Virus record (IMG/VR): IMGVR_UViG_2778261085_000007
Coordinates: 1-9,274 of that record
Origin: a virus
Lineage: Duplodnaviria; Heunggongvirae; Uroviricota; Caudoviricetes
Strand: one strand, 5' to 3'
Length of the DNA: 9,274 bases
Shown here: in pieces, positions 391 through 6,219 of the stretch
Position numbering within the stretch: the stretch's first letter is position 1
Layout of the letters: the number at the start of each line of letters is the position of its first letter
Position numbers and translations under genes: made by a program
The notes under the pieces: model-generated
Databases searched by the model: none
What the model saw: the letters and a program-made list of their open reading frames with translations, nothing else
Told to the model about the DNA's origin: nothing

Positions 391-939
391 ATGAAGGTTA
401 ATAAAAAGAAGCTCGCGGAAATTTTCAACGTGGATCCACGAACGATTGAACGCTGGCAGTCTCAGGGGCTCTCTTGTGTCTCTGGTGGTAGTAAGGGGGT
501 TGAATCTGTATTTGATACCGCCATGGCAATTCAGTGGTATGCGCAGCGCGAAGCCGATATTGAAAACGAAAAACTCCGCAAAGAGACCGAGGATTTGCGT
601 GCGGCTGCGGAATCAGATTTACAACCCGGCACCATTGACTATGAGCGCTACCGACTCACAAAAGCACAGGCTGATGCACAGGAACTGAAAAATGCCCGCG
701 AAGAAGGGCTGGTACTGGAAACGGAATTGTTTACCTTCATTCTGCAACGTGTGGCACAGGAGATTTCGGGGATACTTGTACGTGTGCCGCTGACATTACA
801 GCGTAAATATCCGGATATTTCACCGTCACACCTTGATGTGGTGAAAACTGAAATCGCAAAAGCCTCCAACGTTGCAGCTAAAGCTGGTGAGAACGTAGGC
901 GGGTGGATTGATGATTTCAGACGCACAGAAGGCAGCTAA
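391..939 (+). CDS. nu1: Terminase small subunit (gpNu1-like), 182 aa
   Basis: [27 protein letters not shown]... aligns with lambda gpNu1 (MEVNKKQLADIFGASIRTIQNWQEQGM...) over its whole length, including the N-terminal winged-HTH. ATG at 391 chosen over the ORF-track TTG at 373 because it matches the lambda N-terminus. Confidence 0.92.
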
Positions 940-2827
940 TGCAGCCGGTGCGATAGCAACAGGGCTTGTATCTCTCAATATTCCGGTACCACTGACGACA
1001 GTTCAGTGGGCTGATAAGCATTATTATCTGCCAAAAGAGTCTTCATATACTCCCGGGCAATGGGAAACACTGCCGTTTCAGGTTGCCATCATGAACAGCA
1101 TGGGGAATGACCGGATCCGCACCGTTAATCTGATTAAATCGGCGCGTGTTGGTTACACCAAAATGCTGTTGGGGGTGGAGGCTTATTTTATTGAACACAA
1201 ATCCCGTAACAGCCTGCTTTTTCAGCCGACAGATTCTGCGGCAGAAGATTTTATGAAATCCCATGTCGAACCAACGATAAGAGACGTTCCTGTATTACTG
1301 GAGCTGGCTCCGTGGTTTGGCAGAAAACATCGGGACAACACGCTTACCCTGAAACGTTTCTCCTCCGGTGTGGGATTCTGGTGTCTGGGCGGAGCTGCTG
1401 CCAAAAACTACCGTGAAAAATCTGTGGATGTGGTCTGCTATGACGAACTCTCCTCGTTTGAACCGGATGTGGAAAAAGAAGGCTCACCAACCCTGCTTGG
1501 CGATAAGCGTATCGAAGGTTCGGTATGGCCTAAATCCATACGCGGCTCAACGCCCAAAATTAAAGGATTTTGCCAGATTGAAAAAGCCGCGAACGAATCT
1601 GCACATTTTATGCGGTTTTATGTGCCATGCCCTCATTGTGGTGAAGCCCAGTATCTGAAGTTTGGCGATGATGCGACAACCTTTGGCCTGAAATGGGAGA
1701 AGGGCAAGCCGGAGACGGTGTATTACCTGTGTGAACATAATGGCTGTGTGATCCGTCAGTCGGAACTTGACCAGACCGACGGGCGGTGGATTTGTGACAA
1801 TACCGGGATGTGGACGCGTGACGGTCTGACATTTTACAGCGCCGGTGATGAGGAAATCCCGCCACCGCGCTCAATCTCGTACCACATCTGGACGGCATAC
1901 AGCCCGTTCACCACCTGGGTACAGATTGTTTATGACTGGCTTGATGCACTGAAGGATCCGAATGGCGTCAAGACGTTCATTAACACCACGCTGGGGGAGC
2001 CTTATGAAGAGGCTGTGGCAGAAAAACTGAGCTTTGAGTTGTTGCTGGAAAAAGTCTGCCACTATGATGCGCAGGTTCCCCTGCGGGTGGTTTACCTGAC
2101 CGCAGGGATCGACTCTCAGAAAAACCGTTATGAGATTTATGTCTGGGGCTGGGCTCCTGGCGAAGAAGCTTTTCTGATTGACAAGCAGATCATCATGGGG
2201 AGACCGGAAGATGAGGACACCCTTAAACGCGTTGATGCCGTGATCCGGAAAAAATACCGTCATGCAGATGGCACTGAAATTTCCATTTCCCGCGTCTGCT
2301 GGGATACCGGTGGTATTGACCAGGACATTGTGTATCAGCGATCCAGAAAACACGGCACTTTTTTTGTGCTCCCCATCAAAGGGGCGTCGGTGTACGGCAA
2401 GCCGGTGATCACCATGCCAAAAAAGCGAAACCAGCGTGGTGTGTTTTTGTGTGAGGTGGGTTCCGATACCGTCAAGGAAATGCTGTATGCGCGTTTTGCC
2501 CTGCCGGTGGTATCTGCCAGTGAAGTCGCACCGTATACCTTCCGTTTTCCGGATAACCCTGACATTTTTTCTGATGTTGAAGCTAAACAACTCGTGGCAG
2601 AAGAGCTGGTTGAAAAAGTTGTGAACGGGCGGGTGAAACTCCAGTGGGATGCCAGAAAACGGCGTAATGAAGCCCTGGACTGTCTGGTGTATGCCTATGC
2701 AGCGCTGCGCATTTCCGTTCAGCGGTGGCAACTGGATCTGGATGCACTGGCCCGCGCCAGAAGAGATGAACAGGACGACGATGAAATGACTATTGAAGAA
2801 ATCGCGGCTGCTCTGAGTGGAGGATAA
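911..2827 (+). CDS. A: Terminase large subunit (gpA-like), 638 aa
   Basis: Full-length alignment with lambda gpA; Walker A segment KSARVGYTK (nt 1136-1162) at the same residue positions as lambda KSARVGYSK; conserved CPHCGE and [13 protein letters not shown] segments. Start overlaps the nu1 3' end as in lambda. ATG 911 preferred over TTG 908. Confidence 0.95.
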
Positions 2828-2853
2828 GTGATGATTTATACGCATGAAATGCT

Positions 2854-3045
2854 ATGCGATGCGATGCCCGCCGGGCGTTACATGAACTGATGATCGGACG
2901 TGCTGTGGTTTCCGTCAGCAAGGACGGGCGTCAGGTTCAGTATTCGCGGGCGACAATTGGTGAACTGCGTCAGTATATTGAAGAGCTGGAAAGTGCGCTG
3001 GGTGTATCCGGACGGCGTCGTGGCCCGGCAGGAGTGTGGCTGTGA
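2854..3045 (+). CDS. W: Head-tail joining / head completion protein (gpW-like), 63 aa as written
   Basis: ...ARRALHELMIGRAVVSVSKDGRQVQYSRATIGELRQYIEELESALGVSGRRRGPAGVWL aligns with lambda gpW (...[59 protein letters not shown]). The ATG at 2854 has no Shine-Dalgarno; an SD-linked ATG at 2831 is out of frame (see findings). Confidence 0.75.
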   Translation: MRCDARRALHELMIGRAVVSVSKDGRQVQYSRATIGELRQYIEELESALGVSGRRRGPAGVWL

Positions 3046-4613
3046 ACGGTGAACTGGTGGATATTCATGGGCAGCCTTTACGGCAAAGCATGGGATATTC
3101 TGGTGGTGGTTCCGGGTTCGGTGGGCAAATGGCAGAATGGCTGCCTGCACCGGAAAGTGCCGACGTGGCGCTCTTACCTTCCATTCATCTGGGTAACGCC
3201 CGCGCGGATGATCTGGTCCGTAACAACGGTATTGCATCGAATGCAGTGGAAATTCATAAGGATCATATTGTCGGGCACATGTTTCGTCTGAGTTACCGTC
3301 CCAACTGGCGCTGGCTGGGGATGTCGGAAGCAGATTCACATGCTTTTATTGAAGATGTTGAGGCGGCGTGGATGGAATACTGCGATCCGGTGTTTGGTAC
3401 GATGGATGTAGAAGGGCGTCGTTCGTTTACCGAATTCATTCGTGAAGGGGTGGGGGTCCATACGTTTAACGGTGAAATTTTTGTCCAGCCCGTATGGGAT
3501 GCGGAATCCACGTCATTATTCCGGACGAAATTCAAAACCATCAGCCCGAAGCGTGTCAGTACACCCGGTTATGGTACCGGCGATCGTTTTATGCGTGCCG
3601 GGGTGGAAATAAACCGACACGGAAAAGCGCTGGCCTACCATGTTCAGGATGATGACTGGCCCGGCTACGGTGTCAGTAAATGGACACGAATTACGGCAAC
3701 ACTGCCTTCCGGACGACCGGGAATGATCCATGTGTTTCAGCCACAGGAAGACGGGCAGACCCGCGGGGCCAACCAGTTTTATTCTGTAATGGAGCGTCTC
3801 AAGATGCTCGACACACTGCAGGCCACGCAACTGCAGTCGGCGGTGGTTCGCGCCATGTATGCCGCCACGATTGAATCCACACTGGATTCGGAAAAAGCGT
3901 TTGAATATATCGCCGGGGTGGGAGATGGAGGTAAAAATCCCCTGAACACCATCATGAAAGGCTACGCGCGTTATTACGCCACCAATACGGTAAAACTGGG
4001 CGGGGTCCGTATTCCGCATCTTTACCCGGGAGATTCACTGAATCTGCAGACAGCCCAGAATGCGGATAATGGTTTTTCTGAACTGGAAAAGGCGCTGTTA
4101 CGTTACATTGCTGCCGGACTGGGTGTGTCGTATGAGCAGCTTTCCCGGGATTATTCACAGGTCAGTTATTCCAGTGCCAGGGCATCCGCCAATGAGTCGT
4201 GGCGGTATTTTATGGGAAAACGAAAATTTGTGGCCAGTCGCCTGGCGTCACAGATGTTTGCCTGCTGGCTGGAGGAAGCCCTTATTCGTGGTGTGATCCG
4301 TCCGCCGAAATCCCGTTTCTCATTCTGGGAGGCTCGTTCCGGGTGGTGCCGTGCCGAGTGGATTGGTGCCGGTCGTATGGCGATTGATGGCCTTAAGGAA
4401 GTGCAGGAAGCGGTGATGCGCATTGAAGGCGGCCTGAGTACATACGAGAAAGAGCTGGCCCTGATGGGGGATGACTATCAGGAGATTTTCCGCCAGCAGC
4501 TACGGGAAACTCAGGAGCGACAGGCTGCCGGTCTTCCGCGTCCGGTCTGGATAAAGGACGCGTTTCAACAGCAGATCCGACAGACAACGGGAGAAAAAGG
4601 CGATGCGCTGTAA
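3042..4613 (+). CDS. B: Portal protein (gpB-like), about 523 aa
   Basis: Full-length alignment with lambda gpB (GGGSGFGG, NARADDLVRNNG, QTRGAN, LLRYIAAGLGVSYEQLSR, GRMAIDGLKEVQEAVM and more). GTG at 3042 overlaps the W stop as GTGA (lambda has ATGA at this junction) with AGGAG 7 nt upstream; in-frame GTG at 3036 is an alternative start. Confidence 0.93.
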   Translation: MNGELVDIHGQPLRQSMGYSGGGSGFGGQMAEWLPAPESADVALLPSIHLGNARADDLVRNNGIASNAVEIHKDHIVGHMFRLSYRPNWRWLGMSEADSHAFIEDVEAAWMEYCDPVFGTMDVEGRRSFTEFIREGVGVHTFNGEIFVQPVWDAESTSLFRTKFKTISPKRVSTPGYGTGDRFMRAGVEINRHGKALAYHVQDDDWPGYGVSKWTRITATLPSGRPGMIHVFQPQEDGQTRGANQFYSVMERLKMLDTLQATQLQSAVVRAMYAATIESTLDSEKAFEYIAGVGDGGKNPLNTIMKGYARYYATNTVKLGGVRIPHLYPGDSLNLQTAQNADNGFSELEKALLRYIAAGLGVSYEQLSRDYSQVSYSSARASANESWRYFMGKRKFVASRLASQMFACWLEEALIRGVIRPPKSRFSFWEARSGWCRAEWIGAGRMAIDGLKEVQEAVMRIEGGLSTYEKELALMGDDYQEIFRQQLRETQERQAAGLPRPVWIKDAFQQQIRQTTGEKGDAL

Positions 4614-6219
4614 TTTATCACATATTGCCGCGATGGCATTTAATGAGCCGCTTTTACTGGAACCCGCCTATGCGCGGGTTTTCTTTTGCGCACTGGGTAA
4701 GGAGATGGGGGCGGGCAGCCTTGCCGTTCCGCAGCAGGCCGTTCAGCTTGACGCCGATGGTATGCAGCTGGCGGTTACCGATTATATGACTGGTGGTCCG
4801 CGTCCGGTAAAGAGTTACCAGGTGAAAAATGGTATTGCCATTCTGCCGGTGAGCGGCACGCTGGTACATAAAATGGGTACCCTGCGGCCATATTCCGGTA
4901 TGACCGGTTATGACGGTCTGACTGCCCGTCTTAAGTCAGCGGTGAACGACCCGGATGTACGCGGCATTTTACTGGATATCGACAGTCCGGGCGGTCAGGC
5001 TGCCGGGGCGTTTGACTGTGCTGACATGATTTACCGTCTGCGGGAACAGAAGCCCGTGTGGGCGCTGTGTAATGACATGGCCTGTTCAGCCGCCATGTTG
5101 CTGGCGGCGGCCTGTACGCGTCGGCTGGTCACGCAGACGGCAAAAATTGGTTCGATTGGTGTGATGATGGCGCACACCAGTTACGAGAAACAACTGGCAC
5201 AGGAAGGCGTGGATATCACGCTGATTTACTCCGGGCAGCACAAGGTTGACGGCAACAGTATTCAGGCATTGCCGACAGGTGTGCGTGCGGATTTTCAGCG
5301 CCGTATTGATGAGGCCCGCCGGATGTTTGTCGACAAGGTGGCACTTTATACGGGGCTGAGTTCAGAGGTGGTGATGAATACCGAGGCTGCCGTTTATGAC
5401 GGTCAGGCAGGCATTGATACAGGCCTGGCTGATCAACTGATTAATGCTGCAGATGCCGTTGATGTAATGGTTTCTGCTCTGAACGACTCTGTTACACAGG
5501 AGAATACGATGACAACAAAAAATCTCACCGTTGCTGAAGCGGTGTCCCAGGAAAATCAGCGCGTGATGGGGATCCTGAATTGTCAGGAGGCGAAAGGACG
5601 CGAAAAACTGGCGCAGATGCTGGCAGGTCAGCAGGGAATGTCAGTTGAGCAGGCAAAAACATTACTGGCGGCAGCACCGGTTGCCGGTACTGACAGCACA
5701 GGCAATCAGATTGTGGCACTTCCGGAAGCAAAAGGACGTGAACAACTGGCACGGACGCTGGCTGAACAGCCGGGAATGACGGTGGAGCAGGCGAAAACGT
5801 TACTGGCAGCGGCACCGGTTGCCGGTGCGGCAAGTACCGGCGAGCAGATTATGGCACTTCCGGAAGCAAAAGGGCGTGAACAACTCGCACAGGCGCTGGC
5901 TGAACAGCCTGGAATGACGGTGGAACAGGCGAAAATGCTACTGGCAGCGGCACCGGAAACCGGTACGGCAAGTACCAGCGATCAAATTATTGCGTTGCCG
6001 GAAGCAAAAGGACGCGAAAAACTGGCACAGGCGCTGGCTGAACAACCGGGAATGACAGTGGAGCAGGCGAAAACGCTGCTGGCAGCTGCGCCATCAGTAT
6101 CGCAACCGTCACAGGTAACACTTTTTGAGCGCTTCATGGCACAGCATGCCGCCAGTGCCGTTTCCGGTGGCGGAACTGCCGGGAACGGGGAAGAAGAACT
6201 GCTGATGAGTATGCCGTAA
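4603..6219 (+). CDS. C: Prohead protease (gpC-like, S49/ClpP-fold family) with a repeat-expanded C-terminal scaffolding domain, 538 aa
   Basis: HIAAMAFNEPLLLEPAYARVFFCAL..., PVSGTL, PYSGMTGY, LTQTAKIGSIGVMMAH and LIYSGQHKVDGN align with lambda gpC. ATG 4603 is preceded by a purine-rich Shine-Dalgarno-like run (GGGAGA, 4589-4594) and overlaps the B stop by 11 nt. About 100 aa longer than lambda gpC because of the tandem repeat. Confidence 0.93.
   Translation: MRCNLSHIAAMAFNEPLLLEPAYARVFFCALGKEMGAGSLAVPQQAVQLDADGMQLAVTDYMTGGPRPVKSYQVKNGIAILPVSGTLVHKMGTLRPYSGMTGYDGLTARLKSAVNDPDVRGILLDIDSPGGQAAGAFDCADMIYRLREQKPVWALCNDMACSAAMLLAAACTRRLVTQTAKIGSIGVMMAHTSYEKQLAQEGVDITLIYSGQHKVDGNSIQALPTGVRADFQRRIDEARRMFVDKVALYTGLSSEVVMNTEAAVYDGQAGIDTGLADQLINAADAVDVMVSALNDSVTQENTMTTKNLTVAEAVSQENQRVMGILNCQEAKGREKLAQMLAGQQGMSVEQAKTLLAAAPVAGTDSTGNQIVALPEAKGREQLARTLAEQPGMTVEQAKTLLAAAPVAGAASTGEQIMALPEAKGREQLAQALAEQPGMTVEQAKMLLAAAPETGTASTSDQIIALPEAKGREKLAQALAEQPGMTVEQAKTLLAAAPSVSQPSQVTLFERFMAQHAASAVSGGGTAGNGEEELLMSMP
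5509..6219 (+). CDS. nu3: Scaffolding protein (gpNu3-like), nested in frame within the 3' part of C, 236 aa
   Basis: Internal in-frame ATG at 5509 preceded by AGGAG (5498-5502) with a 6-nt spacer; product MTTKNLTVAEAVSQENQRVMGILNCQEAKGRE... aligns with lambda Nu3 (MTKETQ...AAENSRIMGILNCEEAHGREEQ...). Lambda has the same nested in-frame arrangement. Confidence 0.7.
   Translation: MTTKNLTVAEAVSQENQRVMGILNCQEAKGREKLAQMLAGQQGMSVEQAKTLLAAAPVAGTDSTGNQIVALPEAKGREQLARTLAEQPGMTVEQAKTLLAAAPVAGAASTGEQIMALPEAKGREQLAQALAEQPGMTVEQAKMLLAAAPETGTASTSDQIIALPEAKGREKLAQALAEQPGMTVEQAKTLLAAAPSVSQPSQVTLFERFMAQHAASAVSGGGTAGNGEEELLMSMP
5587..6093 (+). repeat. In-frame tandem repeat, 138-bp unit (46 aa), 3 full copies plus 1 partial
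   Basis: Units start at 5587, 5725, 5863 and 6001 (partial, 93 bp). Each encodes EAKGRE(K/Q)LA..LA(E/G)Q(P/Q)GM(T/S)VEQAK(T/M)LLAAAP..G..ST..QI.ALP. Copies differ at many synonymous positions, so the duplication is not very recent. Confidence 0.9.

Follow-up and report, generated by a model that had tools for sequence, protein, structure and literature searches.

In phage lambda, the start of gene W overlaps the stop of gene A. The W product, gpW, is a 12-mer adaptor that sits under the portal; its helices 1 (residues 4-22) and 2 make up a bundle whose hydrophobic contacts build the ring, while Arg32 clamps the DNA and the C-arm augments the beta-sheet of the portal (PMC10721106). The gene is essential: when it was targeted by CRISPRi, the efficiency of plating was 3e-5 (PMC10695390). 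Frameshifts that are caused by short repeats also have a described model, the textbook case being the slipped mispairing that occurs at CTGGCTGGCTGG in lacI (PMC11603525). Moreover, ribosomes that terminate at a stop inside an ORF are able to restart at the nearest AUG, UGAUG being the minimal overlap (PMC6728339).

The window, i.e., the whole stretch of 9,274 nucleotides that was analysed, is the head-morphogenesis block of a lambda-type E. coli prophage from a draft genome and carries Nu1, A, W, B, C, D, E, FI, FII, Z and U. Nu1 (391-939) is followed by the terminase large subunit gene, which is the homologue of lambda A (911-2827, plus strand; Pfam GpA_ATPase 185.7 bits, GpA_nuclease 231.9 bits), whose product is annotated as the terminase large subunit in relatives and whose stop codon TAA lies at 2825-2827. 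Downstream of W are the portal gene, which is the homologue of lambda B (3042-4613, plus strand; Pfam Phage_portal_2 320 bits; 523 aa in the gene calls), the S49 peptidase/gpC gene (4603-6219) and the genes of the decoration protein, the major capsid protein, FI, an FII-like protein, Z and U. The position of W, with a gpA-type large terminase upstream and a lambda-family Phage_portal_2 portal downstream, is the same as in lambda. The matches to sequenced phages were found only at the protein level (45-55% identity), hence no sequenced phage was usable as a close reference; a megablast search of positions 2700-3100 against 50,697 phage records gave no match. The portal gene probably starts at GTG 3042, judging from the start signals: this codon overlaps the W stop (GTGA) and has the Shine-Dalgarno (SD) sequence GGCAGGAG (-7.8 kcal/mol), while ATG 3090, which is the portal start given by PGAP in relatives, reaches -1.8 kcal/mol without an SD and would give 507 instead of 523 aa.

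Several features of the window lie outside W and its neighbours. A 138-nt tandem repeat (5586-6086; 3.6 copies, 84% matches) is located within the S49 peptidase/gpC gene, where it specifies units of 46 aa (PEAKGRE.LAQ.LAEQPGMTVEQAKTLLAAAP...); they lie in the C-terminal portion of gpC, which is scaffold (Nu3)-like by its position. At positions 1-275, homology to most of the complete-genome relatives starts at about 162 and the differences cluster at 186-275, which suggests a mosaic joint upstream of Nu1, near the expected position of cos. Additionally, the gene callers predicted a 43-aa ORF on the minus strand at 227-358 that had no family match.

According to the original prediction, the W start that is linked to an SD is out of frame with the body of the gene, and the elements of this arrangement were confirmed in the sequence. 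The SD of W, GGAGGA (2819-2824, plus strand), lies within the last codons of gene A and is kept in all of the relatives; its anti-SD duplex energy, -9.3 kcal/mol, was the strongest among the gene starts that were tested. It is followed by ATG 2831, the native W start, as the same ATG opens the annotated 69-aa gpW in relatives. In the window, this 5' end of W (2831-2890, plus strand) reads MIYTHEMLCDAMPAGRYMN and stops at TGA 2888-2890, which makes 19 codons in all; the W frame is kept for 11 of these codons (MIYTHEMLCDA) and then a +5 frameshift follows. The suggestion that the W start overlaps the end of gene A as it does in lambda held for the SD but not for the ATG, which sits 3 nt past the A stop. 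The conserved body of W lies, as had been predicted, in a frame different from that of ATG 2831, in a 63-aa ORF (MRCDARRALHEL...GVWL; 2854-3045, plus strand) whose ATG has no SD. This ORF scored 85.4 bits on Pfam PF02831 gpW (cut-off 22.5) and covers profile positions 8-65. It is exactly RefSeq WP_244580921.1, which is named 'phage head-tail joining protein' and bears no pseudogene or frameshift flag. The W frame also contains the Met19 codon (2890-2892, plus strand), which overlaps the stop of the 19-codon ORF (UGAUG); the 51-aa product read from it matches the gpW profile from position 17 and scored 69 bits. The anti-SD pairing energies were +0.4 kcal/mol before ATG 2854 and -2.7 kcal/mol before ATG 2890, and the mean over all of the 216 ATGs that were scored in the window was -2.8 kcal/mol.

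The two frames meet in the pentanucleotide tract ATGCT-ATGCG-ATGCG-ATGC (2849-2867, plus strand), which was recovered by Tandem Repeats Finder (period 5, 3.8 copies, consensus ATGCG) as the only period-5 array of the window and which was also delimited by the alignment to relatives. The perfect period-5 run comprises 14 nt (ATGCGATGCGATGC, 2854-2867). A lag-5 run as long as this was found in 14 of the 500 mononucleotide shuffles; by chance alone, such a run is slightly unusual, and a duplication accounts for it completely. Deleting one ATGCG unit fuses the frames, as the prediction had it, and gives exactly the 69-aa protein of the relatives, which scored 88.0 bits on PF02831 (cut-off 22.5) and matched PDB 1HYW at an E value of 2.2e-16. 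An uninterrupted ORF of about 68-69 aa from the SD-linked start is absent in the window, but its siblings and almost all of the 69 related loci described below have one.

An exact-sequence look-up with the S49 peptidase of the window gave ten near-identical contigs. One of them (L054; GCA_002548925.1 NOBH01000076.1, 9269 nt) has the same start and end bases as the window and lacks one ATGCG unit; at every other one of the 9274 positions, the two are identical. A second contig (L055) is likewise identical over 7602 nt, minus the ATGCG unit. The other eight have 2-10 substitutions or small indels each, with the exception of L053, which has more, mostly in one gap block near one end, and none of the eight carries the extra unit. 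The wider sample of related loci included E. coli chromosomes, 41 IMG/VR contigs, 11 metagenome contigs and 10 NCBI/Logan contigs. In this sample, the short tract was present in all 69 of the other loci that were fetched, being ATGCGA in 44 and TTGTGA in 25, and in nearly all of these loci the SD-linked ATG opens a 69-aa gpW. Besides the window, the long tract occurred in a single fetched locus, L004 (GCA_002521485.1 NOTU01000093.1), which has the same start base and is one base apart from the window, at 5861, inside the 138-nt tandem repeat. Relatives that combine a three-unit tract with a W protein starting at 2854 were looked for among these loci and were not found.

Similar observations were made in complete genomes, where the 401-nt W region matched 104 of the 5,426 E. 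coli genomes. Among the matches listed, all 40 complete-genome stretches were 5 nt shorter than the query, with the aligned gap in the tract. In strain EC11, the tract reads ATGCT-ATGCG-ATGCC, while more distant alleles read ATGCT-TTGTG-ATGCC; the genes of both types are annotated as a 69-aa 'phage head-tail joining protein' that starts from the SD-linked ATG. A 36-nt query spanning the three-unit junction had no match in the 5,426 complete E. coli genomes or in 72,556 PLSDB plasmids, and the 31-nt two-unit junction, which served as a positive control, was found in 19 complete E. coli genomes at 100% identity. A variable-gap pattern scan of one-genome-per-species contigs gave no match, the species representatives being without this prophage allele. 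In the public collection, only three contigs, of 5-10 kb, carry the exact 63-aa ORF; the intact 69-aa protein of the siblings (...GVWL) is encoded, as an exact match, by 137 contigs and its GVGL forms by at least 1000.

The relatives also indicate which frame is used at the 5' end of the gene. Over the first 15 W codons, they show four synonymous-site differences and one conservative I/V change. Because the differences are mainly synonymous, the frame of ATG 2831 is evidently the selected frame through the junction, and the pattern indicates that the N-terminal W residues are maintained, with 11 codons under purifying selection in the relatives. At the other end of the gene, a G>T polymorphism of the lineage at 3037 (codon 68 of the intact W) changes the C-terminus of gpW from VGL to VWL; the equivalent C-terminal residues of lambda gpW are FYV, in the portal-binding C-arm. 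Low sequence quality had been suspected from several G>T changes of the window relative to the complete-genome relatives, two of them (3037 and 3050) near W. The same changes are common to the ten near-identical contigs, and since they are shared by the sibling lineage, they are real lineage polymorphisms. W variants with an altered or truncated C-terminus were also encountered, of 111 and 124 aa (cluster members P0005 and P0014), as were variants of 80 aa and 54 aa, one each, among loci L005-L070; these represent rearrangements or fusions of other kinds, or effects of contig ends, among related prophages.

Based on these comparisons, we consider it probable, at roughly 80%, that the window carries a very recent, private 5-bp tandem duplication of ATGCG that arose by slippage in one isolate or a small clone and with which full-length gpW was lost. 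The duplication is unique among the sequences compared and the two-unit tract is the ancestral state. The aligner places the extra unit at 2854-2858 (plus strand), and any 5-nt register within 2854-2867 is equivalent, as the inserted ATGCG is an exact copy of the adjoining unit. The ancestral allele of the siblings, ATGCT-ATGCG-ATGCC, already has ATGC three times at a 5-nt spacing, with a perfectly periodic stretch of only 9 nt; this shortness, at a site that is not known to be a slippage hotspot, counts against the proposed origin. An exact copy of a neighbouring unit at a pre-existing ATGC repeat is the signature of Streisinger slipped mispairing, and we infer that the extra unit most likely arose through slipped-strand mispairing during replication at the direct repeat ATGC-N-ATGC-N-ATGC. 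Slipped-strand variation had been among the predicted explanations; one-off slippage agrees with the data, whereas ongoing repeat-number variation does not, since three units were found in none of the 69 loci and in none of the 5,426 genomes. Because the duplication was seen only once among the relatives examined, a mutational hotspot is unsupported here, and the duplication is an ordinary slippage frameshift that is mechanistically nothing new. The original interpretation as a whole was partly supported: by sequence comparison, the relatives prove the extra unit that separates the frames. Elsewhere in this prophage lineage, the only other slippage event seen is an in-frame loss in contig L052, in which one GAC of the GACGAC doublet at 2774-2779 is missing near the 3' end of gene A (637 compared with 638 aa).

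The alternative that survives best, although we regard it as unlikely, is that the extra unit is an artefact of sequencing, consensus calling, polishing or assembly and that the isolate really has two units and an intact W; a sequencing error had also been named in the original prediction and is disfavoured. Such an artefact would be consistent with a unit that is private to three small contigs, perhaps from one sample, and with a sibling contig, L054, that is otherwise identical to the window. However, the same comparison with L054 shows the remaining 9269 positions to be error-free, and the duplication recurs in a second record, L004, which is not byte-identical to the window. Moreover, the 63-aa ORF comes from both NCBI and Logan sources, the latter being re-assemblies from raw reads. 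To our knowledge, an exact 5-nt tandem duplication is not the kind of error that short-read platforms or de Bruijn assemblers usually make. The single difference between the two records suggests that L004 may be a separate assembly or isolate. Nevertheless, since L004 and the window share their start base and differ only inside the 138-nt repeat, they may not be independent, and all three contigs with the duplication may derive from one isolate or read set. It is because these contigs may come from one strain that we leave a small share of the probability to an artefact.

It is also quite unlikely that the frameshift is real but tolerated, with ATG 2890 being used for reinitiation, or ATG 2854 for de novo or back-scanning initiation, and with enough N-terminally truncated gpW being produced for the phage to remain viable. 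The new stop does overlap an in-frame AUG as UGAUG, which is the minimal arrangement for termination-reinitiation (PMC6728339), the 63-aa and 51-aa products keep 85 and 69 bits on Pfam gpW, and every gene of the window apart from W is intact and has the same sequence as in the sibling. However, an intact remainder is just what a very recent mutation would leave, and neither ATG has an SD. The 2890 product would lose the equivalents of lambda residues 1-17 from helix 1 (4-22), which forms the subunit interface, and purifying selection acts on the N-terminal 11 codons in the relatives. A conserved overlap between the stop of an upstream ORF and a downstream start was not found in the relatives either; there, positions 2888-2892 are internal W codons (L18-M19) with no upstream ORF, and the UGAUG of the window is thus an unconserved accident of the frameshift. 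Reinitiation at 2854, which the prediction had put forward, is unsupported, as this ATG lies 36 nt upstream of the stop of the short ORF and has no SD. Since restart after termination can take place at the closest AUG, any restart should prefer 2890 over 2854.

A productive role for the three-unit allele, in which the SD-linked 19-codon ORF would be a leader that feeds ribosomes via UGAUG into a functional truncated gpW, or in which frequent changes between two and three units would act as an ON/OFF switch of virion production in this prophage lineage, is very improbable. The weakest reading, a phase-variable contingency tract whose pentanucleotide repeat flips W and virion production ON and OFF at high frequency, has in its favour that the tandem repeat is located where an essential gene begins, at its 5' end, and that a one-unit gain is reversible in principle, but we dismiss it as having next to no probability, because known contingency loci have much longer, hypermutable tracts while this one is short (3.8 copies with one mismatch, 14 nt perfectly periodic; the duplication raised the number of perfect units from 1.8 to only 2.8), because other unit numbers were found neither in the 69 related loci nor in the 19 complete genomes that have the same allele, and because 25 related loci read TTGTG at the tract position, encode the same Leu-Cys-Asp and have no repeat there at all, so that, as judged from its length, its invariance and its absence in these relatives, the tract is no contingency locus.

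Returning to the private duplication, its consequences for gpW can be outlined. Ribosomes that start from the strong SD and ATG 2831 would shift frame after codon 11 and terminate after 19 codons; with such a frameshift and stop, no full-length gpW would be made. A residual product in the W frame would come from an SD-less restart at ATG 2890, which would give 51 aa without most of helix 1, or, less likely, from a start at ATG 2854, which would give 63 aa without about one turn of helix 1. The latter product, if translated, might fold and work. As the UGAUG is an accident of the frameshift, we expect, by analogy with lambda, that W function in this prophage is lost or severely reduced. Additionally, the loss of W translation through 2890-3042 may lower the coupled translation of the portal gene. 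The W adaptor would normally hold the packaged DNA and let the tail attach, and the expected phenotype would be that DNA is packaged with few or no infectious particles being formed. Exceptions could arise from a loss of the unit, i.e., reversion, from gpW supplied by a co-resident lambdoid prophage or from a partly active truncated product.

The main value of these observations lies in annotation and strain biology. WP_244580921.1 is listed as an ordinary head-tail joining protein, which makes the frameshift invisible in the annotation, and the prophage would be scored as intact though it is probably unable to make infectious particles. Furthermore, two contigs that differ in nothing but the duplication document, as a clean case from nature, how replication slippage would begin to inactivate a prophage.

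Among the known systems, lambda is the natural reference for this locus. The repaired 69-aa protein aligns over residues 5-68 of lambda gpW (PF02831, PDB 1HYW/8K38), the gene order terminase-W-portal is the same and the W stop of the window overlaps the probable portal start. However, the W proteins of lambda, N15 and HK225 have only about 45-48% identity to that of the window. Furthermore, the W ATG of the window lies past the A stop without overlapping it, which differs from lambda, and its W is split by the +5 frameshift. Systems of termination-reinitiation (UGAUG, AUGA) are similar in that the UGAUG closing the 19-codon ORF contains an AUG that is in the W frame and that the W stop and the portal start form GUGA. 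In contrast to an evolved coupling, it was the frameshift that produced the UGAUG at 2888-2892, which is unconserved and has no supporting SD. The locus also resembles those of cryptic or decaying prophages, as one lesion, which is private, affects an essential virion gene of a prophage module that is otherwise intact. It differs from them in having no second lesion within the 9.3-kb window, which would place any decay at its very first step. The lacI gene is reported to have a frameshift hotspot at CTGG-CTGG-CTGG (Farabaugh et al., 1978). The ancestral repeat of the prophage, with ATGC three times and differing spacer bases, is weaker than that of lacI, but the likeness to the CTGG hotspot is that one unit of a short repeat was gained in a coding region, giving a frameshift that is reversible by the loss of a unit (PMC11603525).
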